Origin: Candidatus Blackburnbacteria bacterium
GTDB lineage: Bacteria; Patescibacteriota; Microgenomatia; UBA8517; UBA10165
Direction: 5' to 3'
DNA length: 64,000 nt
Assembly: GCA_016183565.1 (NCBI GenBank)
Contig: JACPEJ010000001.1
Coordinates: 226,577 to 290,576 of the forward strand
Made by a program: the position numbers and the translations under genes. Positions 1 to 26,901 of the stretch are shown piece after piece (position 1 is the stretch's first letter; the number at the start of each line of letters is the position of its first letter). The notes under the pieces are model-generated. The model was not told the DNA's origin. It searched no databases and was given only the letters and a program-made list of their open reading frames with translations.

Positions 1-374
1 GTTCTGTTGCCCAAAAACAGGTTTATCGGGCTTTTGAGATAGTAAAAAGTGAGACAAACGAAGATCCCTTGCACGTATTTTTGCAGGCGATGGAGAACAT
101 AAAGCCTAACACGGAGGTTCGTCCTCGCAGGATTGGTGGGGCGGCCTATCAGGTTCCGGCTCCTGTTCGCGGTGTAAGGAGGGAGAGTTTGGGAATAAGA
201 TGGCTTATTCAGGCGGCAAGTACTCGGCCGAGTAGTCAGTATAAAACTTATGCGGCGAAACTAGCGGGTGAGATAATAAGTGCGAGGAAGGGTGAAGGCG
301 GGGCCATTACAAAGAAACAGGAGGTTGAAAGGGTTGCAGAAAGCAACCGTGCATTTGCGCATTTTAAGTGGTAA
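1..374 (+). CDS. rpsG: 30S ribosomal protein S7 (5' partial; C-terminal ~120 aa present)
   Basis: ORF end ...ISARKGEGGAITKKQEVERVAESNRAFAHFKW matches the S7 C-terminus; it sits upstream of fusA as in the str operon. Confidence 0.85.
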   Translation, partial: SVAQKQVYRAFEIVKSETNEDPLHVFLQAMENIKPNTEVRPRRIGGAAYQVPAPVRGVRRESLGIRWLIQAASTRPSSQYKTYAAKLAGEIISARKGEGGAITKKQEVERVAESNRAFAHFKW

Positions 375-428
375 GTTTCACACTCAGAAAGGAGTTTGTT
401 TGACTGTGGTTGGTAGTTGGTATATAGT

Positions 429-1721
429 ATGAGGGTGGGGAAAATTTTTGTTGCTTTAGCCTCCTTTTTTTCTATCTTCTTTTTGTCTGCTTCGGCTTTT
501 GCTTCAGAACTTGCGCCTTCTGCAAAACCTCTGATTGTTCCCCCTGGAGACAATATCTTCTTTGGTCAAAGTCACTACTATACTGTTGTTTTTAGAAATA
601 ATGGTGAAGCGGTTGTTTACTCCAAGTTTGTTTTGGTAAACCCAGAGGAGAGTTCTCTTTCAACCTTTAGTTTTGAGGTTCCAAAGGTAGTACCAAGCGA
701 TCTTGTTATTTTTCAGCAAAAGCTTAGGGGTTATTGTTTAAGATATGATCCTGTGGACTCTGTAAAGTGTATTGAGGAGCAAGAACCTGATTACCGAAAT
801 TACTATTATGGGCAGGGTGCACAATATCAGAAGATTCAATATGAGAAGATAGGAAATACTTACAAGTTTGATCTACCGGATCCTGTGAATCCAAACACAA
901 CAGGTGCTTTAATTATTGCATATATTGCGAAAGGGTATGCCAAGGAAGAGTTGGGTGCTTTTAAATTCGATTTTGAGACACTTAAAGTTGATTCGAGAAT
1001 TGAGTCTGTTCGTGTTGCTGTTGATGTTGACAGTGATTTGTATCTTAAAGGCAAAAAGGCGAGTGTAAATTATACGGAGTCTACTGTGGCTTCTATTGCT
1101 GAGTTTGAATCCAGTGTTGGAGTAGTAGATAGGGTTGCGAGTCAGATTGGTTCGTATGGCGCTTTGGTTAAAGAATCAAAAGGTCTTGCTCCAAGTGAGA
1201 GTTTTAGTGTTCGTGGCGAATATTCTGATAGTTTGTTTAAACTTTATTTGAGATCTATTGGTTTGTCGGTGGCAATAATTGCTGCGATAATTTTTGTGCT
1301 AGTTTTGTTTAAGAGAGTTTTTGCTAGGATCGGTGATTGGATTAGTAGCTATGGGGATTCAAAAGCAAATTCGTATGGTTTTTTGGGGATTCTTAACATA
1401 AGCATAGGGCTTTTGTCTGCTTTCTTGGCTTTGGGTTTGACTGTGGTTGTGGTTTTTATTCAAAGATCAAACTTTATTTCGTATGAACCGTTTATTACTC
1501 TTTTGGTTGTGGTGATTTTCGTTCTTCTATACTTCCTAGCATTGTTGGCCCCAGCTATTGCTTCGGCCATATCTCGTGGATGGAGATCTTTGTTGACTGT
1601 TTTGCTTTGGGAAACTATTTGGTTATTTGTTTTTGTGGTTTTGTATTTTTTGTTGTTTAAGTCAGGGCTTGATTATTCCAGGTATCCTAAAATTGTTCCT
1701 CAGGAAAGTGTTATAAAGTAG
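429..1721 (+). CDS. hypothetical secreted/membrane protein (N-terminal signal peptide, ~4 C-terminal TM helices)
   Basis: 434-aa ORF; MRVGKIFVALASFFSIFFLSASAFA looks like a signal peptide; hydrophobic helices at the C-terminus; start codon uncertain (TTG 417 or ATG 429). Confidence 0.6.
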   Translation: MRVGKIFVALASFFSIFFLSASAFASELAPSAKPLIVPPGDNIFFGQSHYYTVVFRNNGEAVVYSKFVLVNPEESSLSTFSFEVPKVVPSDLVIFQQKLRGYCLRYDPVDSVKCIEEQEPDYRNYYYGQGAQYQKIQYEKIGNTYKFDLPDPVNPNTTGALIIAYIAKGYAKEELGAFKFDFETLKVDSRIESVRVAVDVDSDLYLKGKKASVNYTESTVASIAEFESSVGVVDRVASQIGSYGALVKESKGLAPSESFSVRGEYSDSLFKLYLRSIGLSVAIIAAIIFVLVLFKRVFARIGDWISSYGDSKANSYGFLGILNISIGLLSAFLALGLTVVVVFIQRSNFISYEPFITLLVVVIFVLLYFLALLAPAIASAISRGWRSLLTVLLWETIWLFVFVVLYFLLFKSGLDYSRYPKIVPQESVIK

Positions 1722-1834
1722 CATATACTTCTTGAATTTGGTAGAATTTATTCAAGGGAGCGAAAGTCGCGTAGCTTACTCACGTGATGCAAGCCCCCGT
1801 TTTTGTGTTCAATATATCTTTTAGAAGGAATTAA

Positions 1835-3994
1835 ATGGCAGCAAAAAAAGGTGCGTTAATTACAACTACAACAGAGAACCGCAAGCTTCCGATGGAGCGG
1901 ATCCGCAATATTGGGATTATTGCACATATTGATGCTGGTAAAACTACAACAACTGAGCGGATTCTTTTTGAGTCAGGGAAGACTTATAAACTTGGATCGG
2001 TGGACGAGGGGTCAACTGTTACAGATTGGATGGAGCAGGAGAGAGAGCGTGGAATTACAATTGTTTCTGCTGCAATCACAACCTTCTGGTCTCCGAAGGT
2101 TAAAGGAGATGTTCCTGCCCAGTCCTACAGGATAAATATTATTGACACTCCGGGTCATATTGATTTTACGGTTGAGGTTGAGAGGTCTTTGCGTGTGCTT
2201 GATGGTGCTGTAATGATTTTTGACGGACGAACTGGGGTTGAGCCTCAATCGGAAACTGTTTGGCATCAGGCCCAAAAATATGGTGTTCCTAGGTTTTGTT
2301 CTCTTAATAAGCTTAATCTTATTGGTGCGGACTGGGCTGGGTCAATTGCCTCTATTCGGGAACGCTTAAGTCCAAATGCAGCTCCTTTGGATATGCCTAT
2401 TGGCATTGAGCATGGCTTTCATGGTGTTGTTGATCTTGTTGAGATGAAGGCTTATGTTTACAAGTCCCAGGAGGATAATCAACTGATAGAGGAAGATATT
2501 CCTGAAAATCTTAAAGATCAGGCTATGAAATATAGGAGTGAGCTTTTAGAAAGAGTTGCGGAATTTGACGATGAAGTACTTGAGAAGTATTTAGAAGGTC
2601 AGGAGTTGACTTCTCAGGAGATAAAAAGAGCAATAAGGAAAGGAACAATTGCTGGGAATTTTTTCCCAATTTTGGGGGGTGATAATCGGATGGCAACGGT
2701 TCAGCGTCTTTTGGATGGTATTGTGGAATATTTGCCTTCTCCTTTGGATATTCCTCCTGTTAAGGGGACTAATCCGGTTACGGGGGAGATAGAGGAGCGA
2801 AGACCCGAAGATGGTCAGCCCCTTGCGGCTCTTGCTTTCAAGATAAATGTTGATCCACATATAGGGCGTTTGGTGTGGCTTAGGATTTATTCCGGGACTG
2901 TAAAAGCTGGTTCTCTTGTTTATAACTCTACAAAAAGGGTTGGCGAGAGGGCGGGGAGATTGGTGCTTTTGCATGCAGATCAGCGGGAACTTATCGAGGA
3001 AGCTTATGCGGGAGAAATAGTTGCTGTTGTGGGACTTAAAGAAACTGTAACAGGAGATACTGTTTGTGAACAAGGTAAGCCAATACTTCTTGAGTCTATA
3101 AGTTTTCCAGAGCCGGTTATTTCTTTGGCAATTGAACCTAAAACTCGACAGGATCAAGAGAAACTTGGGTATGCTATGTCGCGGCTTGGGGAGGAGGATC
3201 CCACATTTAAAGTAAAGACGAACCACGAGACTGGCCAGACTATTATATCGGGGATGGGAGAATTACAACTTGAGGTTTTGGTTGATAGGATGAAGAGAGA
3301 GTTTAACGTAGAGGCGACTACAGGTGCACCTCAGGTTGCATACAGAGAGACGATTAAGAAAGCAGCTATGGGTGAAGGGAAATATATTCGTCAAACTGGG
3401 GGTCGTGGTCAGTATGGGCATTGTCTTTTGAGGGTTGAGCCAAAAGGTAGGGGAGAAGGGAGTGAATTTGTTTCTGAGATTAGGGGTGGTGCGATACCAC
3501 AGGAGTTTATTCCGGCTATAGAAAAAGGAGTTCGTGAGGCTATGGATAATGGGATTTTAGCTGGTTTTCCTTTAACGGATATGAAGGTGGCTGTTTACGA
3601 TGGTTCTTTCCATGATGTGGATTCTTCAGAAATAGCATTTAAGATAGCGGGTTCTATGGCGCTTCAAGCTGCTTCTAAAAAAGCGGAGTTAGTTCTTCTT
3701 GAGCCTATTATGAAGGTCTTTGTTTCAACACCGGACAATTTTATGGGGGATGTGATAGGGGATCTTTCTTCTCGGCGAGCTCAGATATTGGGGACAGAGA
3801 CAAGAGGTGTTTTGCAGGTTATAAACTCTTTAGTTCCCCTTTCGGAGATGTCTGGTTATGCAACAACTTTGCGTTCTATAACTCAAGGTCGTGCAAGTTA
3901 CTTTATGGAGCCAAGCCATTATCAGGAGGTTCCTTCTAATATAACCCAACAGATAGTTGGGAAATTGCAAGCTTCGGTTGCAGCGGTCAGATAG
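1835..3994 (+). CDS. fusA: elongation factor G
   Basis: AHIDAGKTTTTERIL, DTPGHIDF and full-length EF-G architecture (719 aa). Confidence 0.95.
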   Translation: MAAKKGALITTTTENRKLPMERIRNIGIIAHIDAGKTTTTERILFESGKTYKLGSVDEGSTVTDWMEQERERGITIVSAAITTFWSPKVKGDVPAQSYRINIIDTPGHIDFTVEVERSLRVLDGAVMIFDGRTGVEPQSETVWHQAQKYGVPRFCSLNKLNLIGADWAGSIASIRERLSPNAAPLDMPIGIEHGFHGVVDLVEMKAYVYKSQEDNQLIEEDIPENLKDQAMKYRSELLERVAEFDDEVLEKYLEGQELTSQEIKRAIRKGTIAGNFFPILGGDNRMATVQRLLDGIVEYLPSPLDIPPVKGTNPVTGEIEERRPEDGQPLAALAFKINVDPHIGRLVWLRIYSGTVKAGSLVYNSTKRVGERAGRLVLLHADQRELIEEAYAGEIVAVVGLKETVTGDTVCEQGKPILLESISFPEPVISLAIEPKTRQDQEKLGYAMSRLGEEDPTFKVKTNHETGQTIISGMGELQLEVLVDRMKREFNVEATTGAPQVAYRETIKKAAMGEGKYIRQTGGRGQYGHCLLRVEPKGRGEGSEFVSEIRGGAIPQEFIPAIEKGVREAMDNGILAGFPLTDMKVAVYDGSFHDVDSSEIAFKIAGSMALQAASKKAELVLLEPIMKVFVSTPDNFMGDVIGDLSSRRAQILGTETRGVLQVINSLVPLSEMSGYATTLRSITQGRASYFMEPSHYQEVPSNITQQIVGKLQASVAAVR

Positions 3995-4051
3995 ATACAG
4001 ATTGTTCCTTTGGGATTTTTTGTAGACAGGTTGGGGATTTTGATATGCCTA

Positions 4052-4080
4052 TTGACATAGTATTTAAGGCTCGTTACAAT
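4052..4080 (+). promoter_or_regulatory. sigma70-like promoter upstream of tuf (TTGACA-17nt-TACAAT)
   Basis: TTGACA at 4052-4057, 17-nt spacer, TACAAT at 4075-4080; a 7-bp stem-loop ggactag/ctagtcc follows at 4088-4107. Confidence 0.6.
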
Positions 4081-4246
4081 ATCCTCTGGACTAGTTGGAG
4101 CTAGTCCGTTTCTTGTCAGCCTGATCTTAGCATTCGTCTTCAGGTACTATTCGTACACGACTCATGCTGCGATCTTGGGCGGACTGCGAAAACTTGTATA
4201 CAAGTTTTCTTGTCTTTTTACGAGAGACACGTTATAATTTAGGAAA

Positions 4247-5437
4247 ATGGCAGAATCGAAATTTGAACGAACAAAACCACATATAAATGTTGGAACCATT
4301 GGTCATGTTGATCATGGTAAAACTACTCTTTCTGCAGCTATAACCCATGTATTGTCCAAACAACCTGGGAATTCTACAAAACCTCTAGGGTATGGTGATA
4401 TTGATAATGCTCCTGAAGAGAGAGAGCGCGGAGTTACAATTAACATTACCCATCTTGAATACGAGACTGAGAAGAGACACTATGCTCACATTGATGCTCC
4501 AGGTCATGCAGATTATATTAAGAATATGATTACTGGGGCAGCTCAGATGGATGGTGCTATTTTGGTAGTTTCTGCTCCAGATGGTGCGATGCCTCAAACC
4601 AGAGAACATGTTCTTTTAGCGCGACAAGTTAATGTGCCGGCTATTGTAGTTTTTCTTAATAAAACGGACATGGTTGACGATCCTGAACTTGTTGATCTTG
4701 TTGAAGTTGAAATTCGGGAGCTTCTTTCTAAATACCAATATCCAGGGGATGAAGTACCTATTGTTAGAGGTTCTGCACTTAAGGCTTTGGAAGGGGATGC
4801 TGAGGCAGAGAATCAAATTCTTGAGCTTATGAAGGCGGTTGATGAGTATATTCCAACTCCAGAGCGAGAAACCGAGAAGCCATTTTTGATGTCAGTTGAG
4901 GATGTTTTCTCTATAAAAGGTCGGGGAACTGTTGCAACTGGTCGTATAGAGCGCGGAAAAGTTAAGGTTAATGAGGAAACTGAGATTATAGGACTTAAGC
5001 CAACTAAAAAGACTGTTGTAACTGGTGTTGAGATGTTTAGGAAGTCTTTGGATGAAGGGCAAGCTGGGGATAACGTTGGTATTCTACTTCGCGGAATTGA
5101 AAAAGATGATATTGAGCGGGGTCAGGTTTTGGCAAAGCCGGGTAGTATTACTCCACATACTGAGTTTGAAGCAGAAGTTTATATTTTAACTAAAGAAGAG
5201 GGTGGTAGGCATACACCGTTCTTTTCAGGTTACAAGCCACAGTTTTATATAAGAACTACGGACGTTACCGGTGAGGTTACACTTCCTGAGGGTGTTGAGA
5301 TGGTTATGCCTGGGGATAGTGCAAAAATGAAGGTAAAGCTTATTCAACCGATTGCAATGGAAGAAGGTTTGAGGTTTGCTATTCGCGAAGGTGGAAGAAC
5401 TGTGGGAGCCGGGGTCCTTTCTAAGGTAATTGCCTAA
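4247..5437 (+). CDS. tuf: elongation factor Tu
   Basis: [22 protein letters not shown] motifs; 396 aa. Confidence 0.97.
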
Positions 5438-5486: not shown

Positions 5487-5798
5487 ATGGCAGGAGCTGC
5501 GAGGATTAGAATCCGTTTAAAATCTTACGATCATAGGGTCATTGATGAGGCGGCAGCAAAAATTGTTGATGCTGTTTTGGCTGCTGGTTCTAAAGTAGTG
5601 GGTCCGGTTCCTCTTCCGACAGAAAGACACCTAACTGTTGTTAATACTTCTCCTCATACAGACAAGGATGCGCGTGAGCACTTCGAGATGTTGGTGCACA
5701 AAAGAATGATTGATATAATTCAGCCAACAGAGCGAACAATTGACGCGCTTTCTAATATGGAACTTCCTGCAGGAGTTTCGATTGAAGTTAAAATTTAA
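5487..5798 (+). CDS. rpsJ: 30S ribosomal protein S10
   Basis: [23 protein letters not shown]...[12 protein letters not shown] is a typical S10. Confidence 0.92.
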
Positions 5799-6187
5799 TT
5801 GGTAGCTTTCCTATACACCATCAAACCTTCAATTTTTTCGAAATCTTTTGTATTTAGAGTTGCTAATTCAAGATCATGGCTTAAAGCAGTTGCTGCTATT
5901 ACCGCATCTACAATATTTGTGCCATAAGCTGCTCTTATTCGTCCTGCTTTTTTTGATATTTCCTCGTCCAATTGCAATATTTTTATGCCAGAAAAAAGAG
6001 TTTCAAGAGCAACTCTTGCCTTTTCTATTTCCCAGACACTTTTGCCAGCATAGCTTTCAGTGTGTGCCACAATGGAAGTATATAATTGATATTCTTTCTC
6101 CAGGAGATTATACAAAACGGTCTGACTTTTATCTTTTAGTCGTAGGTAGTCGATAATTATTGAAGAGTCCAGAAGTATTTTGGACAT
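5795..6187 (-). CDS. vapC: PIN-domain toxin VapC
   Basis: [11 protein letters not shown] ... [10 protein letters not shown] ... TLNTKDF shows the PIN acidic residue pattern; 1-nt spacing from the upstream antitoxin gene. Confidence 0.75.
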
Positions 6188-7453: not shown

Positions 7454-8152
7454 ATGGCAGCTAGGATAAGTAAACAGTCTAAGTCTAAGAGTGAGGCTCG
7501 AGCGAAGGTTCGGAAGGTAGTTTTGGGTCTTGAAGTACCTTTATATGTTAAAGCAGGAGTGCAAGAAGGTACTGTAGAACTGCCAAAGGAAATTTTTGGT
7601 CAGAAACCAAATAAGGTGCTTATTGCTCAGGCAGTGAGGGTTTTTCTGTCACGGCAAAGGATGGCTCGAGCGTCTGTTAAGACTCGCGCACAGGTAGATT
7701 TGACGAAAAAGAAGATGTATCGCCAAAAGGGTACGGGGGGTGCGAGACATGGAGCACAGTCAGCTCCTATATTTGTAGGTGGAGGGAGCGCACATGGTCC
7801 CAAGGCGTTTGAAAATTACAAGTTATTGATATCTAAGAAGATGTCCAGAAAGGCTTTGTTCTCGGCTCTTTCTGAGAGAATGATTGACAAGAGGGTTTTG
7901 GTGGCTGATATAGAAGGGATTGCGCCCAAAACCAGAGATTTGGTGCAGTTTCTTAAGAATGCCCAGATAGATCAAGCACTGATTGTACATAAGGCTAGTG
8001 AGAATCTTTTAAGAGCGGGTAGAAATATAAAGAATATAGCTATTGTTAGGGCCGGGCAATTGAATGCTTATGATGTATTGAGAGGGAGGATGATTGTCTT
8101 GACAAAAGAAGCTTTAGATGTGTTGGCACAGAGGGAGGGCAGGAAAGCGTGA
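7454..8152 (+). CDS. rplD: 50S ribosomal protein L4
   Basis: position between L3 and L23; KGTGGARHGAQSAPIFVGGG motif. Confidence 0.9.
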   Translation: MAARISKQSKSKSEARAKVRKVVLGLEVPLYVKAGVQEGTVELPKEIFGQKPNKVLIAQAVRVFLSRQRMARASVKTRAQVDLTKKKMYRQKGTGGARHGAQSAPIFVGGGSAHGPKAFENYKLLISKKMSRKALFSALSERMIDKRVLVADIEGIAPKTRDLVQFLKNAQIDQALIVHKASENLLRAGRNIKNIAIVRAGQLNAYDVLRGRMIVLTKEALDVLAQREGRKA

Positions 8153-8460
8153 TGTTGAAACCATTGATTACTGAAAAGACATTAAGTGAGGTACAAAGTA
8201 GGAATTGCTACACTTTTTTGGTTTCCGCTCATGTTACTAAGGACCAGATTAGAGAATATGTGGAGGGGATTTTTGGTGTTAAGGTTTTGGGAGTGCATAC
8301 GTCAGTTGTAAGAGGAAAGAAAAAGAGACTAGGTAAAAAGAAAATGTTGGTTTCTAAGAGGGATTTTAAGAAAGTAGTAGTGAGATTACCAGAAAAAGAG
8401 AAGATTGATCTTTTTGAAATTGAAGAAAAGAAAAAAGGCAAGAAAGGGAAAAAATCGTGA
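8149..8460 (+). CDS. rplW: 50S ribosomal protein L23 (Lys-rich C-terminal tail)
   Basis: LKPLITEKT...YTFLVSAHVTKDQIREYVEGIFGVKV. Confidence 0.88.
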   Translation: MMLKPLITEKTLSEVQSRNCYTFLVSAHVTKDQIREYVEGIFGVKVLGVHTSVVRGKKKRLGKKKMLVSKRDFKKVVVRLPEKEKIDLFEIEEKKKGKKGKKS

Positions 8461-9191
8461 GAAAACTTAGAAGAATATTGCCAAAAAATTCAGGTAGGGA
8501 TGCTCAAGGGCGGGTTGCTGTTCGGCACCAAGGTGGAAGGCACAAGAGGTTTTTGCGCGCTGTTGATTTTGCGCGCAGCAAACGTGATATTTTGGGGAAG
8601 GTTGAGAAGATTGAGTATGATCCGAACCGAAATGCCAGAATTGCCCTTATTCTCTATTCTGATGGCGAGCGTTCTTATATACTGGCTCCGAAAGGTTTAG
8701 AAGGTGGTAGCAAAGTTTGTGCAGGGGATGCGGTGTCTATAACAGCAGGTAATGCTTTGCCACTTGGAAGGATTCCTGTAGGTACAACCATACACAATAT
8801 TGAGGTTAAGCCGGGTAAGGGAGGACAGCTTGCCAGGTCGGGATTATCAAGTGCAATTGTGCAGGGTCGAGAAAATGGTACGATTTTGGTAAAATTGCCT
8901 TCTGGGGAAATAAAGAGATTTGATCCTCTTTCCTTAGCCACTATTGGTCAGCCTTCTGGTGGTACTCGCGGGAGAATAGGTAAAGCAGGTAGAAAGAGAA
9001 GAATGGGTGTTCGTCCGACTGTTCGGGGTGTAGCAATGCATCCTGATGCTCATCCTCATGGAGGCGGAGAAGGACGCTCAGGGGAAGGTATGCCACCCAA
9101 GACTCCTTGGGGTAAACCGGCAAGAGGAGTGAAGACAAGAAGGAGAGGGAAGTATTCAGATGGGTTGGTTGTCAAAAGGAGGAAGCAATAG
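8457..9191 (+). CDS. rplB: 50S ribosomal protein L2 (GTG start; ~30 aa shorter at the N-terminus than typical)
   Basis: VRHQGGRHKR...GVAMHPDAHPHGGGEGRS; an in-frame TGA at 8421 prevents N-terminal extension. Confidence 0.9.
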   Translation: MRKLRRILPKNSGRDAQGRVAVRHQGGRHKRFLRAVDFARSKRDILGKVEKIEYDPNRNARIALILYSDGERSYILAPKGLEGGSKVCAGDAVSITAGNALPLGRIPVGTTIHNIEVKPGKGGQLARSGLSSAIVQGRENGTILVKLPSGEIKRFDPLSLATIGQPSGGTRGRIGKAGRKRRMGVRPTVRGVAMHPDAHPHGGGEGRSGEGMPPKTPWGKPARGVKTRRRGKYSDGLVVKRRKQ

Positions 9192-22122: not shown

Positions 22123-22539
22123 ATGGCAGCGAGAAAGAAAGTCAGCAATAATTTTACTTTTGCAGTTGGTCGTCGTAGGACGTCGGTTGCTCGTGTGCGT
22201 CTTTCTAGGGGCAGTGAGCAACATATTGTGAATAATATTGTAATTGGTGAATATTTTCCAGGTGATGAGCAGAAGAGGTTGTGGAATCGACCTTTCCAAA
22301 TTACTCAAACAGAAGGTAAGTATCATGTGACTGCGAGGATTGAAGGAGGAGGTAAGAGGGGGCAGTTGGGGGCTTTTGTGCATGGAGTTGCAAGGGCTTT
22401 GGTAGCTTTGGACTCTGAAAATTATAAACCTCTGCTTCGAAAATGTGGCCTTTTAACTCGTGACCCCCGCGCCAGACAGCGCCGAATGGTTGGAATGGGT
22501 GGAAAGTCAAGAAGAAAAAAGCAGTCTCCAAAGCGATAA
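22123..22539 (+). CDS. rpsI: 30S ribosomal protein S9
   Basis: C-terminal ...KSRRKKQSPKR. Confidence 0.92.
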   Translation: MAARKKVSNNFTFAVGRRRTSVARVRLSRGSEQHIVNNIVIGEYFPGDEQKRLWNRPFQITQTEGKYHVTARIEGGGKRGQLGAFVHGVARALVALDSENYKPLLRKCGLLTRDPRARQRRMVGMGGKSRRKKQSPKR

Positions 22540-23336
22540 TGAACAGCCAACCAATTGGTATTTTTGATTCGGGAGTTGGGGGCTTGACAGTTGCGAAAGG
22601 AATATTGGAAGCTTTGCCCAAGGAAAGTATTGTCTATATAGGAGACACTGCTCGTGTCCCTTATGGCACTCGTGGAATTGAGATAATTACTCAGTTTGCT
22701 ACAGAGCTTGTTCAGTTTCTTCTAAAGCATAATGTCAAAATACTTGTTGCTGCATGTAATACAATATCAGCAACTTGTTTAGATAAGCTTCAAGAGAACT
22801 CTCCGGTTCCGGTTATTGGTGTTATAAAACCTGCTGTTTTAGAAGCGAGCAAAACAACCAGAAACAAAAAAGTTGGGGTAATTGGAACACGAGCTATAGT
22901 GAACAGCAAGATTTACGAAAAGGAGATTGCGAAACTTGATTCAGAGATTGAAGTCTTGTCCCAAGTGTGTCCTTTGTTTGTACCAATTGCCGAAGAAGGG
23001 ATGGGCAATAATGGTATAGCAAAACTTGCCGCGAGTCAGTATTTAGATGTGTTTAATGAAATAAACATAGATACTCTAATTTTAGGTTGTACCCATTATC
23101 CTCTTTTGAGAGAGGTAATTCAGGAAGTTGTGGGGATAGATGTTACGTTAGTTGATTCTGCGCATCCTACGGCCAGAGACTTGAAGGCTTTTCTTGAGGA
23201 GAATAATTTGCTGAATGCGGTTGGTGATGTTACTAAGCAATTTTTTGTTACAGATGCTCCTGAGAGAGTTCGGGAGGTTGCAGATGTGTTTTTGGGTTGT
23301 CATGTGGTACCTGCTTTAGAAAAAGTAACGCTTTAA
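22539..23336 (+). CDS. murI: glutamate racemase
   Basis: IGIFDSGVGGLTV, ACNT, GCTHYP motifs. Confidence 0.88.
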   Translation: MNSQPIGIFDSGVGGLTVAKGILEALPKESIVYIGDTARVPYGTRGIEIITQFATELVQFLLKHNVKILVAACNTISATCLDKLQENSPVPVIGVIKPAVLEASKTTRNKKVGVIGTRAIVNSKIYEKEIAKLDSEIEVLSQVCPLFVPIAEEGMGNNGIAKLAASQYLDVFNEINIDTLILGCTHYPLLREVIQEVVGIDVTLVDSAHPTARDLKAFLEENNLLNAVGDVTKQFFVTDAPERVREVADVFLGCHVVPALEKVTL

Positions 23337-23397: not shown

Positions 23398-23468
23398 CGG
23401 GGAATAGTTTAACGGCAGAATGCGCCCATGGGGTGGGTGTGGTAGGTGTTCAATTCACCTTTCCCCGA
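23398..23468 (+). tRNA. tRNA-Pro (anticodon GGG), 71 nt, CCA not encoded
   Basis: hand-folded: perfect 7-bp acceptor stem cggggaa/ttccccg with the C1:G72 pair and A73 typical of bacterial tRNA-Pro; U8; D-loop with GG; anticodon stem cgccc/gggtg; loop aUGGGGu with U33 and G37; T-stem aggtg/cacct; T-loop TTCAATT. Confidence 0.8.
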
Positions 23469-23539: not shown

Positions 23540-24376
23540 ATGGCCACTACGATAGCAATTTTTGAAGGTAAAAAAATCCGCAGACATTGGGATGAGGAAA
23601 ATGAAAAATGGTGGTTTGCTGTGGTTGATATAGTATCTGTGTTGTCTGAGAGTACGAACCCACAAGTATATTGGAGAGTACTCAAAAAAAGACTGCTTGA
23701 TGAAGGTGCAAATGAAACCGTTACAAAATGTAACGATTTGAAAATGCTAGCAGCAGACGGAAAAATGCGTCTTACTGATGTGGCAGATGTTGAAACAATG
23801 CTTAGAATAATCCAATCAATTCCTTCTCCTAATGCTGAACCTTTTAAATTATGGCTTGCCCGTGTTGGTTATGAACGGATTGAAGAAGCAGAAGATCCAG
23901 AAAAAGCTATCCAGAGAGCAATGAACTTTTACTTAAAACGTGGCTATTCTAAAGATTGGGTGAACCAAAGACTAAAAAGCATTGAGATTAGAAAAGAATT
24001 AACTTATGAGTGGGAAAACAGAGGAGTTAAAGGAGATAATAAATTTGCCATACTGACTGACGTAATTACTTTTGCTTGGGCTGGTTTAAAAACAAGAGAT
24101 TACAAGAAATATAAGGGATTAAAAAAGGAAAATTTAAGGGACAACATGACTAATCTTGAACTTGTCCTTAATATGTTAGCTGAAGCCTCAACCACAGAAA
24201 TCTCCGAGAAAGTTGAACCGAAAAGCTTTAAGGAGAATAGAAAAGTTGCTAGGGAAGGTGGAACAATTGCGGGGACTGCCAGAAAACAAATTGAAAAAAG
24301 AACAGGTAGAAAGGTTGTTTCAAAATTAAATGCTAAAAAGCTAGGGCTTTTAGACAGCGAGATTGATAAAGAATAA
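23540..24376 (+). CDS. DinD-like protein (Bro-N/KilA-N-type N-terminal domain)
   Basis: N-terminal AIFEGKKIRRHWDEENEKWWFAVVDIVSVL resembles the Bro-N/DinD pattern; ~275 aa like E. coli DinD. Confidence 0.5.
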   Translation: MATTIAIFEGKKIRRHWDEENEKWWFAVVDIVSVLSESTNPQVYWRVLKKRLLDEGANETVTKCNDLKMLAADGKMRLTDVADVETMLRIIQSIPSPNAEPFKLWLARVGYERIEEAEDPEKAIQRAMNFYLKRGYSKDWVNQRLKSIEIRKELTYEWENRGVKGDNKFAILTDVITFAWAGLKTRDYKKYKGLKKENLRDNMTNLELVLNMLAEASTTEISEKVEPKSFKENRKVAREGGTIAGTARKQIEKRTGRKVVSKLNAKKLGLLDSEIDKE

Positions 24377-24502: not shown

Positions 24503-24985
24503 ATGACTGAACCTACAGGCGAAATTAGTCGGGGTTTGGAAGCCGAAGTAAATCTCCAGGGAGAATTACTGTCCTCAGTTTTTTTTTGGTCTCTTCAAAG
24601 AATAGATTCTGAAACTGGTGTTTGGAACGGGAGGGTGGATTGCGAGGGACATGCTGTTGATGTTGTTATCTCGGCACATTCTGCAAAAGATTCTCCGTAT
24701 CCTCGTTATGCAACTATCGAGATCCGGGACGGTTTTAGAGAAGAAACATGGGTTTTACGAGAACATGAAGACCGCCGGATGTTTTCACTGGTGAGTACAT
24801 CGTCTTCTTCTATGCTTTTTGGCGAGTCTGTAAAAACCCCCGAAGAGCGACCTAGTGGTGTTGGTTTGACGGTTTGGTTGCAAGATGGAGGGGTAGATAT
24901 GGCGCGGACTGGGGTGGGTTGTTCGGGGGCAATTAATGCCTTGAAGACGTTTACGGCTGCGGTTTACAAGAGTGATGCTTCTTGA
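24503..24985 (+). CDS. hypothetical protein (160 aa) in the island
   Basis: ORF only; no recognisable motif. Confidence 0.45.
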   Translation: MTEPTGEISRGLEAEVNLQGELLSSVFFWSLQRIDSETGVWNGRVDCEGHAVDVVISAHSAKDSPYPRYATIEIRDGFREETWVLREHEDRRMFSLVSTSSSSMLFGESVKTPEERPSGVGLTVWLQDGGVDMARTGVGCSGAINALKTFTAAVYKSDAS

Positions 24986-25108: not shown

Positions 25109-25137
25109 TTTGAATTCAAAATAGTTTTTTGTTACAA
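25109..25137 (+). promoter_or_regulatory. sigma70-like promoter TTGAAT-17-TACAAT; predicted transcript start ~3 nt before ATG 25147 (near-leaderless)
   Basis: TTGAAT at 25109-25114, TACAAT at 25132-25137. Confidence 0.5.
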
Positions 25138-25146
25138 TCTGGGGAG

Positions 25147-26901
25147 ATGACCATTGAAACCACATCTCAAGACAACCGTGAGGCCAGGCGTCTTAATGCT
25201 GCCATGGACCGTCGGACCACCCCGGCCTCGGCCAAGTTATTAGAGCTGATACATCAACAAAGACATCAAGCAGAAACAGCCTGGCATGAAATGATTAGAC
25301 GGCCTGGCATAAGTTTGGCCCAGCTAATTTATCAAACTGAACCAGTTGTACCGGCTATGGTAGAAAAAATGCGCTCCTTTTCTCAGTCTCTAGCCCAAGC
25401 TAAAGGAGTGAGGCAACCACCAGAGGAGCAACCCCGTCAGCGATGGGCTAAGTACCTCAATGGTTTAAGCAAAGAAGATTATTATTCATTAAAAGTTGGC
25501 GGCATCAAGGGTTTAGGAAGAGAAGGAACATCGCTTTCAGATATTGAAACAATGTCCCTGCCCCTGTCTTTAGAGGATATTAACAGGATTAACCGTATTT
25601 ATCGTCATAATTTGCTGTTTCGTGCTAATAGTCAAGAGACATTTATTGCCCAGTCAGGTCTTGTTTTGGCTGCCCAGCCATGGGCCAGGCCAGATTTAAA
25701 ACAGGCAATCCCTGCTACTATTAGGCCTTTATTTGATCGGTTGACCAACTATTGGGATTACCATACCAACTTAATAGCCAATCCGGTATTTGATACTGGC
25801 GAGGAAGCCAAGCTGGCCACGATGGTTGGTTGGTTAGGTAAAGGTTTTTTTAAAAGTCTGGCCCTGTTTATACCAGCTCGTTTAGGTATTACTCCAGCTT
25901 CAACCATGAAGTTGTTTGAATATCATTCAGCCTTTTCCGGGCTTGATCTAACTTGGAAGATGATCACTGATTTGCTTGGCCCAGAGCTGGTCCAGGCCTA
26001 CCGTCCTGATAATTTGCCACCTGACCTGCAACCATATCAGCAATATGCCCCTGAAGCTGACAAAAAAACCAGTCAGGTTTTGGGTAGATATTATCAAAAT
26101 CAAGCTGCCTCAGAGCTGGTTAGCCACCTTGACAGCTGGCAGAGTTTCTTGAGGCTTGGCCTTTACTGGAAAGCCCTTCGGACAGATATTTTAACTTCAG
26201 GCTCCAACCGGCTGGAGTTTAGATTGCCAGACCACCCAGTCTTTAATGAAGTGATACTGACCTGCCAAAATAAACAGGTCTTGATATTTATTCTCAGTTT
26301 GGCTTTGGATCAGACACATTTAACTTTAGAAATTGATAATCAGGGCCGCCTTTTCGGGTTGCCAGCTGATTTAGTTTGGGAGTCACCATCTGCCGGTCAT
26401 TATCTAATTCAGGATATCCTCAGTCCAATTTTAGAGTGGGCCCGCAACCTTCACCCGCAAATTGAACCAAGCCCACTAGTAGCCACCACTGCTCCAAGTA
26501 AAAAAACCCAGCCAGCTTTAGTCCAAAGCAGTGTTAATCAGGTAGAGGCTGTGCCTCGATCTTCGGTAGTTAAACGCCGTCGTTTGCCTCTACCAGCACC
26601 TTTTCAGGAACCAGACTTACCCTTACCAGTTAGGCCAGTTAGGCAACAGTTGACAGTGATTTACTCCCGGAGTCAGGTTCGTGAATTGTTGGGACCCAAA
26701 ACTCCTGAGAAGGTAGTTACACAGATTATGGGAGCTATTAAACAGCTTGAGTATGGCTCAAGGAAATTAGAGTCAGTTAAAGCACTACCAGGTTGTTATA
26801 AATTTCGCAGTGGTAACTACCGGGTTATAGTTAGACCTGAGGATGGGCAGGTTTACTTTTTAGTGAATATAGGCTATAGGCGGAATATCTATGATTTTTA
26901 G
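25147..26901 (+). CDS. large (~585 aa) protein: unknown N-terminal ~500 aa fused to a C-terminal RelE/ParE-family mRNA-interferase domain
   Basis: C-terminus ...ALPGCYKFRSGNYRVIVRPEDGQVYFLVNIGYRRNIYDF aligns with E. coli RelE ...MPDCYKIKLRSSGYRLVYQVIDEKVVVFVISVGKRERSEVY, including Lys, Arg and Tyr positions; the ORF-track start TTG 25129 lies inside the promoter, so ATG 25147 is preferred. Confidence 0.7.
   Translation: MTIETTSQDNREARRLNAAMDRRTTPASAKLLELIHQQRHQAETAWHEMIRRPGISLAQLIYQTEPVVPAMVEKMRSFSQSLAQAKGVRQPPEEQPRQRWAKYLNGLSKEDYYSLKVGGIKGLGREGTSLSDIETMSLPLSLEDINRINRIYRHNLLFRANSQETFIAQSGLVLAAQPWARPDLKQAIPATIRPLFDRLTNYWDYHTNLIANPVFDTGEEAKLATMVGWLGKGFFKSLALFIPARLGITPASTMKLFEYHSAFSGLDLTWKMITDLLGPELVQAYRPDNLPPDLQPYQQYAPEADKKTSQVLGRYYQNQAASELVSHLDSWQSFLRLGLYWKALRTDILTSGSNRLEFRLPDHPVFNEVILTCQNKQVLIFILSLALDQTHLTLEIDNQGRLFGLPADLVWESPSAGHYLIQDILSPILEWARNLHPQIEPSPLVATTAPSKKTQPALVQSSVNQVEAVPRSSVVKRRRLPLPAPFQEPDLPLPVRPVRQQLTVIYSRSQVRELLGPKTPEKVVTQIMGAIKQLEYGSRKLESVKALPGCYKFRSGNYRVIVRPEDGQVYFLVNIGYRRNIYDF

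Follow-up and report, generated by a model that had tools for sequence, protein, structure and literature searches.

A Microgenomates protein family joining a RelE-fold domain to a novel N-terminal module: a candidate single-chain toxin without an antitoxin gene

How can a cell keep a gene for a RelE-type nuclease with no antidote encoded beside it? RelE nucleases are usually viewed as small poisons requiring a separate antidote, and the gene considered here, gene X, carries a RelE fold at the end of a much longer protein. It lies in a 64,000-nucleotide stretch of a Candidatus Blackburnbacteria genome (contig JACPEJ010000001.1, positions 226,577 to 290,576), referred to as the window, at positions 25147..26901 of the + strand, with an ATG start and a TAG stop. 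Its product of 584 amino acids (aa), identical to the NCBI hypothetical protein HYU80_01405 (Candidatus Blackburnbacteria, 584 aa), falls into a novel module at the N-terminus, a linker, and a RelE-fold domain at the C-terminus; the list of open reading frames (ORFs) also allows an alternative TTG start at 25129, which would lengthen it to 590 aa. We propose that X is an mRNA endonuclease of RelE type that acts as a single chain without an antitoxin and is controlled in cis by its N-terminal module, a reading to which we assign a probability of roughly one half. The case bears on how antitoxin-less RelE proteins stay safe, a group set aside by the latest survey of the superfamily (PMC11980606).

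The C-terminal domain covers residues 501-584 (26647..26898, +), has a pI of 9.8 and is a member of the RelE/ParE (BECR) superfamily both by a sequence score above threshold and by fold. The Pfam model PF05016 (ParE_toxin) matches the full protein at E 5e-5 with 24.2 bits for a cut-off of 23, and the isolated tail at 26-27 bits, while phrog_1213, 'RelE-like toxin', matches X at 1.1e-8. In the AlphaFold2 (AF2) model, residues 503-577 form a beta-alpha-alpha-beta-beta-beta unit, and in the fold search the domain superposes on solved RelE and ParE toxins, the ParE structures scoring almost as well as those of RelE. The initial annotation of this DNA, which had placed a RelE/ParE domain at the C-terminus, is borne out by these scores and fold matches. 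A search of PDB sequences with X returned RelE-family toxins only, and weakly (E. coli RelE at E 0.023 over 47 residues). Among individual relatives only 7-8 of 43-81 pass E 0.01 for Pfam, and a profile of the domain found no match at E 1e-3 among 5.8 billion proteins.

Alignment to E. coli RelE gives equivalents of all five of its catalytic residues in the window protein; the same annotation had noted the Lys pair region, the Arg before the C-terminus and the C-terminal Tyr. K552, R554 and R559 (codons within 26800..26823, +) correspond to K52, K54 and R61, and R578 and Y582, both part of the C-terminal 'G-x-R-x-x-I-Y' motif (codons R578-Y582, 26878..26892, +), correspond to R81 and Y87. Across 94 main-type relatives, whose mutual identity is only ~30%, four of the five equivalents are kept at 88-100%: that of R61 is R in 92/94, that of R81 is R or K in 94/94, that of K54 is R or K in 87/94 and that of Y87 is Y or F in 83/94. 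Such counts point to purifying selection on the catalytic-type residues. Furthermore, the family motif gdRkeiY aligns at the profile level with HR..IY of M. jannaschii RelE3 and M. tuberculosis (Mtb) Rv2866, and the ParE-type C-terminal motif, LH.RM, is not the one present in the X family. Judged by these alignments, the domain is probably an active RelE-type mRNA endonuclease, and a ParE-like action is less likely.

The joining of the two parts is a property of a whole family. A profile search, exhaustive over 1.84 billion representative proteins clustered at 50% identity, gave 168 profile matches, 127 of them at E < 1e-30, corresponding to ~130 clusters. Nearly all members are 560-630 aa long and match end to end, and every member carries a RelE fold, in one of two sequence types. 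Relatives of the N-terminal region fused to other effector domains, for which the initial annotation had proposed a search, were not found: none of the 127 clusters joins the module to any other effector. Eleven clusters with a 'different' C-terminus had been considered as bearers of other effectors and were rejected, this C-terminus being RelE-fold as well. Sequence methods missed the variant type, since single-sequence Pfam returned nothing, hhalign of A3 against A4 gave a probability of 0.2%, and the best hit of a PDB profile search was only HigB, at E 0.7; the variant retains its own R/D/R/H/F set. In a neighbour-joining (NJ) tree of the N-terminal module, which is crude and has distances saturated at ~0.8, the 11 variants are non-monophyletic. 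On these sequences the fusion of the module to a RelE fold is obligatory. Since the module always bears a RelE fold and no other effector is ever joined to it, a dedicated partnership is favoured over a sensor whose effectors can be swapped. Named members come from Blackburnbacteria, Daviesbacteria and a 'Microgenomates group' bacterium, and as far as seen the family is restricted to Microgenomates, within the Candidate Phyla Radiation (CPR).

The N-terminal module itself comprises residues 1-435. In the AF2 model, residues 1-350 (25147..26196, +) are all-helical, with ~15 helices and a pI of 9.2, and are followed by a beta/alpha subdomain (residues 351-435; 26197..26451, +) made of a four-stranded sheet and two helices, with a net charge of -5 in the window protein. 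A Pro-rich basic linker (residues 436-500; 26452..26646, +) with KRRRL and conserved prolines then leads to the RelE fold, and pLDDT falls to 53-74 over residues 440-480. The model (me59a8cac82a3, built on a 105-sequence alignment) has an overall pLDDT of 91.2 and a pTM of 0.89, and both modules are confidently placed despite the low-confidence linker. Given that pTM is high although the linker is floppy, the model suggests that the N-terminal module and the C-terminal domain stand in a defined mutual arrangement. Residues 1-435 of the window protein have no match in Pfam, NCBIfam, PADLOC or PHROGs; the module shows no Pfam domain in 81 relatives and none by PDB sequence profile or PDB fold, in agreement with the initial annotation, which had recognised no domain in this region. 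Median pI values in the family are 9.8 for the C-terminal domain, 8.9 for the N-terminal module and 9.4 for the linker; the whole protein is thus basic, which fits RNA or ribosome binding.

The most conserved motif of the family, ARLGITPxSxxK (residues 244-255; 25876..25911, +), has invariant or near-invariant columns in both alignments A1 and A2. In the model it falls at a helix-turn-helix (HTH)-like junction between helices 232-246 and 250-263, for which an HTH function may be considered. Its S-x-x-K was also considered as a serine-enzyme site and rejected as implausible within an all-helical context. Other polar conserved patches are GTSLxDIExM (127-136), YFDYY (202-205), THLTLE (390-395) and (Y/F)GxP (403-406), and short basic motifs occur in the flexible regions, namely NRxxRR close to the N-terminus and the KRRRL of the linker. 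The N-terminus of X (MTIETTSQDNREARRLNAAMDRR...) is hydrophilic, with neither a signal peptide nor a hydrophobic segment, and a twin-arginine signal at NRxxRR was rejected since no hydrophobic h-region follows it.

No recognisable antitoxin accompanies the RelE fold, either within the chain or beside it. Neither the window protein nor the 81 relatives contain an RHH/ParD, Phd/YefM, HTH-Xre/HigA, MqsA, BrnA or other antitoxin domain of Pfam, and searches of the PDB by sequence and by fold gave none either. In the window the initial annotation had seen no adjacent antitoxin gene, and its observation stands: the sole upstream ORF, ORF160 (24503..24985, +; 160 aa), ends 162 bp before X, and recA lies downstream. 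ORF160 belongs to no family in Pfam, NCBIfam, PADLOC or PHROGs, has no homolog at any related locus, and among the 5.8 billion proteins matches nothing but itself (NCBI HYU80_01400). It was rejected as an antitoxin on these grounds, and by the same searches it looks like an orphan gene with no conserved partner, or no gene at all. Moreover, no small conserved partner ORF stands beside X across ~17 distinct loci, the neighbours being variable. X is hence not a type II toxin-antitoxin (TA) module, since its toxin domain forms the end of a protein of 584 aa and no cognate antitoxin gene is found.

A small gene that stands directly before X in some other genomes is of another kind. In 7 loci X follows the gene of a Cys4 protein of 67-78 aa, at a distance of 12-27 bp or with an overlap, which is where an antitoxin gene classically lies. 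The best PDB matches of this protein are ribosomal protein L28, at E 0.02-0.4, and it has no Pfam or NCBIfam match. This L28-like protein is 72% identical on average between genomes versus 31-54% for X, and it is absent from the window; for these reasons and for its PDB matches it was rejected as a missed antitoxin. The gene is a probable rpmB, and its product may be a divergent CPR form of bL28. In most lineages X is apparently co-transcribed with it. The gene is located at 5737-5973 in locus L001, 5752-5988 in L003, 3828-4064 in L006, 3592-3825 in L009, 3324-3560 in L015, 898-1101 in L016, 3432-3668 in L021 and 4010-4234 in L022. The Cys4 zinc-ribbon has 37 invariant positions and is uncalled as a gene in three source records.

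With a RelE fold that is fused, residues that are conserved, and an antitoxin gene that is absent here and in the relatives, an intramolecularly controlled toxin is the natural reading. The cell tolerates the X gene without an antidote, and therefore the N-terminal module or the linker would have to control the nuclease in cis; similarly, X is stable at a housekeeping locus, and therefore the protein would have to be tolerated at rest. By analogy with RelE, the C-terminal 84 residues would enter the ribosomal A site and cut mRNA there, while the flexible basic linker of ~65 residues would tether them to the 435-residue basic module. This module would substitute for the missing antitoxin by deciding in cis at what time the nuclease acts or which ribosomes it acts on, whether the nuclease is occluded until a signal arrives or is restricted to particular ribosomes by the module or the linker. 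X would then be harmless at rest and would arrest translation, locally or globally, only when it meets a signal or a given state of the ribosome. What is shown is the fold, the conserved residues, the obligatory fusion, the lack of a partner gene, the synteny, the rate of evolution and the composition; the ribosome dependence, the gating in cis, the trigger and the physiological role in this scheme are what we infer.

The RelE toxins of RelBE systems (E. coli; T. thermophilus, 2KHE; M. tuberculosis RelE1, 9G12, and RelG/Rv2866; M. jannaschii RelE3) are stand-alone proteins of ~90 aa with an adjacent antitoxin in a bicistronic autoregulated operon, whereas X has neither and its nuclease is fused behind a 500-residue N-terminal region. 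The similarity of X to RelE is marginal in sequence (24 bits for Pfam; E 0.023 for E. coli RelE) and the K52 equivalent is variable. Among known systems X would work most like Cami1, the CARF-RelE ancillary effector of type III CRISPR, which cuts mRNA in the A site once cA4 has activated it (PMC11229360). Like X, Cami1 (PDB 8PHB) is one chain that begins with a sensor or regulatory module and ends in a RelE-fold nuclease, without an antitoxin, and it would be, by analogy, the precedent for gating in cis. Indeed, Cami1 is found among the fold matches of the X family, at rank 22 and rank 17 in two fold searches. However, Cami1 has a CARF domain and a type III CRISPR context, whereas X has no CARF and no CRISPR or cas genes occur in any locus examined; the taxon range differs as well.

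Multidomain or fused BECR toxins have also been catalogued: the Gerdes 2025 survey lists ParD-ParE, YefM-YoeB and HigB-HigA fusions, ToxM and PtuXYZ, and mentions many multidomain RelE/ParE proteins without identifiable antitoxin that are left unanalysed (PMC11980606). In these proteins, as in X, the RelE/ParE-fold domain lies inside a larger protein, but X differs from the catalogued fusions in that its partner is no recognisable antitoxin, transmembrane domain or PtuA/restriction partner. Microgenomates, Daviesbacteria and Blackburnbacteria have no entries in the parts of the supplementary tables examined (PMC11980606). The view of the initial annotation that a RelE-effector design of this type was undescribed does not survive, as both Cami1 (PMC11229360) and multidomain RelE/ParE toxins (PMC11980606) are published; of its interpretation, the part that holds is a single-chain RelE effector without an antitoxin. 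The X family is new, restricted to CPR as far as seen, and carries a novel, putatively regulatory module, and the design principle itself was already described. The literature search found no paper describing the family, and the eLife 2020 conflict-systems paper mentions no RelE effectors.

Two further groups of proteins are comparable by function. CapRel-type defence proteins resemble the proposal for X in that a regulatory part holds a translation-targeting toxin off until a trigger is met, within one chain. The CapRel toxin is a RelA/SpoT-like tRNA pyrophosphokinase, of another fold than X, and its gene belongs to mobile defence and responds to a phage trigger that has been identified, whereas X is mostly a syntenic chromosomal resident. 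SmrB, Cue2, NONU-1 and B. subtilis Rae1 are resident endonucleases of translation quality control; on particular ribosomes, such as collided ones, they cleave the mRNA in the A site or close to it, and their folds (SMR, NYN) are unrelated to RelE. Their likeness to X is purely functional, and it would match the housekeeping synteny and the translation-gene link of X.

A genome scan and a metagenome scan, both run with a strict search pattern, returned only 5 and 3 loci respectively. Of ~17 distinct loci, 9 keep all or part of one frame, which consists of a divergent M50 peptidase gene, the L28-like gene, X, and convergent fmt and def, often also with Wzy/TPR and mreB. The variant-type member P0071 occupies the M50-fmt-def frame like the main type, and therefore the two C-terminal types are positional orthologs. 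Inside the frame, identity between genomes is 47-83% for the flanking proteins versus 31-57% for X. In most lineages X is, by gene order and identities, a vertically inherited, long-term resident of a housekeeping locus.

The window departs from this arrangement, as neither M50, the L28-like gene, fmt nor def is near X. Upstream, in order, are murI (22539-23336), tRNA-Pro(GGG) (23398..23468, +), a Bro-N protein gene (23540..24376, +) and ORF160; downstream are recA, recX and rny (RNase Y). The tRNA-Pro(GGG) forms the left edge of a 3.5-kb block with the Bro-N gene, ORF160 and X, and the Bro-N gene begins 72 bp past it. The Bro-N protein is a full-length match to the PADLOC candidate single-gene defence family PDC-S13 (2.9e-129) and also matches phrog_15286 (3.9e-117). 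The third-codon-position GC skew of X is 0.12, versus 0.4-0.7 for host genes in the window, and that of X homologs in other genomes is 0.16-0.26. Given the different locus, the company of Bro-N/PDC-S13 and the foreign-looking codon skew, the sequence points to a horizontal arrival or a relocation of X in the Blackburnbacteria genome, and the Bro-N gene may have been acquired together with it. An integrated island with att sites was considered and rejected, as there is no repeat of the tRNA-Pro 3' end, no meaningful direct repeats and no integrase.

For the physiological role, we place a resident cellular function, in stress or translation surveillance, somewhat above phage defence. The resident role is favoured by the synteny, the operon-like link and the single effector type; on the side of defence are the high rate of evolution, the neighbouring PDC-S13 gene and the transfer that X has apparently undergone into this genome. 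Several points weigh against the gated, antitoxin-less mRNA endonuclease that we propose. The Pfam score is scarcely over its threshold, and the Pfam family matched, PF05016, mixes RelE-type and ParE-type toxins (PMC11980606). The equivalent of K52 is variable across the family (E 24, R 19, K 12, S 12), and we infer both nuclease activity and ribosome dependence from homology alone. The N-terminal module is basic, unlike the classical acidic antitoxins, and the L28 identity of the small upstream gene is a weakly supported one. Finally, X evolves ~2 times faster than its flanking genes, and the window copy has its foreign codon skew beside a candidate defence gene, both of which speak for a conflict gene rather than for a housekeeping gene.

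These last two observations are also among those for an abortive-infection or phage-defence system, a possible, if tentative, explanation in which the fast-evolving N-terminal module would detect a phage component, free the RelE domain and stop translation in the manner of CapRel or Cami1. Single-chain sensor-toxin designs are already established, X diverges at about twice the rate of its syntenic neighbours and sits, in the window, next to tRNA-Pro and Bro-N/PDC-S13, and in other genomes TA pairs, a reverse transcriptase (RT) of diversity-generating retroelement (DGR)-like type with bAvd, and a recombinase are found near it. However, X has no match to any family of PADLOC-DB v2 at E up to 1, where only the neighbouring Bro-N gene matches, and two peptide patterns found no relatives on IMG/VR viral contigs. 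The locus is conserved over lineages in which fmt and def share only 47-69% identity, a persistence that defence genes do not usually show; X is operon-like behind a 72%-conserved L28-like gene; unlike modular defence sensors, its N-terminal module is never paired with another effector type; and neither an integrase nor an att repeat marks an island in the window. The defence role raised by the initial annotation hence keeps the fast evolution, the apparent horizontal arrival and the PDC-S13 neighbour on its side, and loses ground on PADLOC, viral contigs, other effectors and the housekeeping synteny. A more speculative version of the resident role, which we regard as doubtful, is that X is a domesticated RelE, a Microgenomates-specific and constitutively encoded translation-surveillance endonuclease whose basic N-terminal module recognises a ribosome state (stalled, collided, hibernating or phage-modified ones would be considered) and delivers RelE to the A site. 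Such a protein would be a functional analogue of SmrB, Cue2 or Rae1 with a toxin fold as its basis, and its gene would be expressed together with that of a ribosomal protein.

The other explanations are less probable. A RelE fold that has lost nuclease activity and only binds ribosomes or RNA, or that poisons gyrase as ParE does, so that X is no mRNA interferase, would accommodate the variable K52 equivalent, the ParE_toxin name of the Pfam model and the toleration of the gene at a housekeeping locus without an antitoxin. We consider it unlikely, given that the equivalents of R61, R81, K54 and Y87 persist in 88-100% of members at ~30% overall identity, that the G-x-R-x-x-I-Y end matches RelE3 and Rv2866, that the variant type keeps its R/D/R/H/F set and that the pI of 9.8 is RelE-like. 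It is more improbable still that X is a classical addiction module in fused form, of which the N-terminal part would be a novel antitoxin cut off by proteases, for instance at the linker, to free the toxin. The order of regulator first and toxin last does imitate the relBE operon, the disordered linker of ~65 residues has conserved motifs, fused BECR toxin-antitoxin proteins are known (195 in PMC11980606), and a stand-alone C-terminal domain of 81-94 aa exists on one short contig; but a basic, well-folded module of 435 aa is unlike the small, acidic and labile antitoxins, Pfam finds no antitoxin domain in 81 members, in the loci seen X is on no plasmid or obvious mobile element, and the inheritance is long-term and vertical. 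Least of all do we expect a secreted or contact-delivered polymorphic toxin by which an episymbiotic CPR cell would act on its host or on competitors, with the N-terminal module for trafficking and an exchangeable C-terminal toxin. Two sequence-distinct RelE-type C-termini on one N-terminal scaffold, and 11 variants that do not form one clade in the crude tree, are what such a toxin would show; the tree, with distances saturated at ~0.8, is however uninformative, and P0071 in the M50-fmt-def locus of the main type favours divergence in place. Against it stand also the features by which polymorphic toxins are recognised: the N-terminus of X is hydrophilic, without signal peptide or hydrophobic segment, all members share one toxin fold, and no conserved downstream gene for immunity is present in the loci examined.

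The X family thus comprises more than 100 clusters in which nuclease residues are kept, no antidote gene is present and a confidently modelled N-terminal module of unknown fold is attached, and it has long been held at a translation-gene locus of ultra-small CPR bacteria, organisms whose ribosome biology is already unusual. Should the N-terminal module gate the nuclease, it would add a regulatory domain of a new kind, and possibly a new sensor, to those that control toxins acting on the ribosome; should it instead direct the nuclease to certain ribosomes, normal translation control would have recruited a toxin fold. The domesticated version, if true, would make X the first RelE-family protein with a housekeeping role and without antitoxin logic. 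With predicted domain boundaries and point mutants defined, X is a concrete and testable entry point.

As for the expression of X in the window, a consensus scan found, by pattern match alone, a promoter-like site at 25110..25138 (+), TTGAAT-17-TACAAT with a TG extension. The -10-like element TGtTACAAT ends 8 nt ahead of the ATG of X, which GGGGAG abuts. Since the promoter-like site ends 8 nt before the ATG, X likely has its own promoter and an almost leaderless mRNA; in other words, judging from the upstream letters, its leader is probably very short or absent.

The window as a whole has an unusually strong strand asymmetry (third-codon-position skew 0.4-0.7): nearly all ORFs of at least 150 aa lie on the + strand and GC skew is +0.2 to +0.4 throughout. 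The only 1-kb bins of ~0 skew inside + strand genes are those at 25-27 kb, that is, gene X. The third-position GC skew of the Bro-N gene, 0.19, is under the host level as well.

A few observations concern the related contigs. Contigs L009, L011 and L012, which hold X homologs together with Microgenomates-type neighbours (M50, fmt, def, Wzy), bear the title 'uncultured Gammaproteobacteria bacterium' in public records, probably a mislabelled taxonomy. On the 1-kb contig L013, positions 284-568 (+) encode the stand-alone copy of the C-terminal domain (81-94 aa), with a few linker residues and no same-strand neighbour; this copy may be what is left of the RelE module, or a relative of it that lives on its own. 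In L003 (Microgenomates Gr01-1014_7), the M50/L28-like/X block is surrounded, at 1-5100 and 7897-8567, by an RT with bAvd (DGR-like), a large serine recombinase and two PIN-type TA pairs. Elsewhere, the TA pairs near X are PIN or BrnT-like in L009 and L022, and RelE/YafQ-like in L011.

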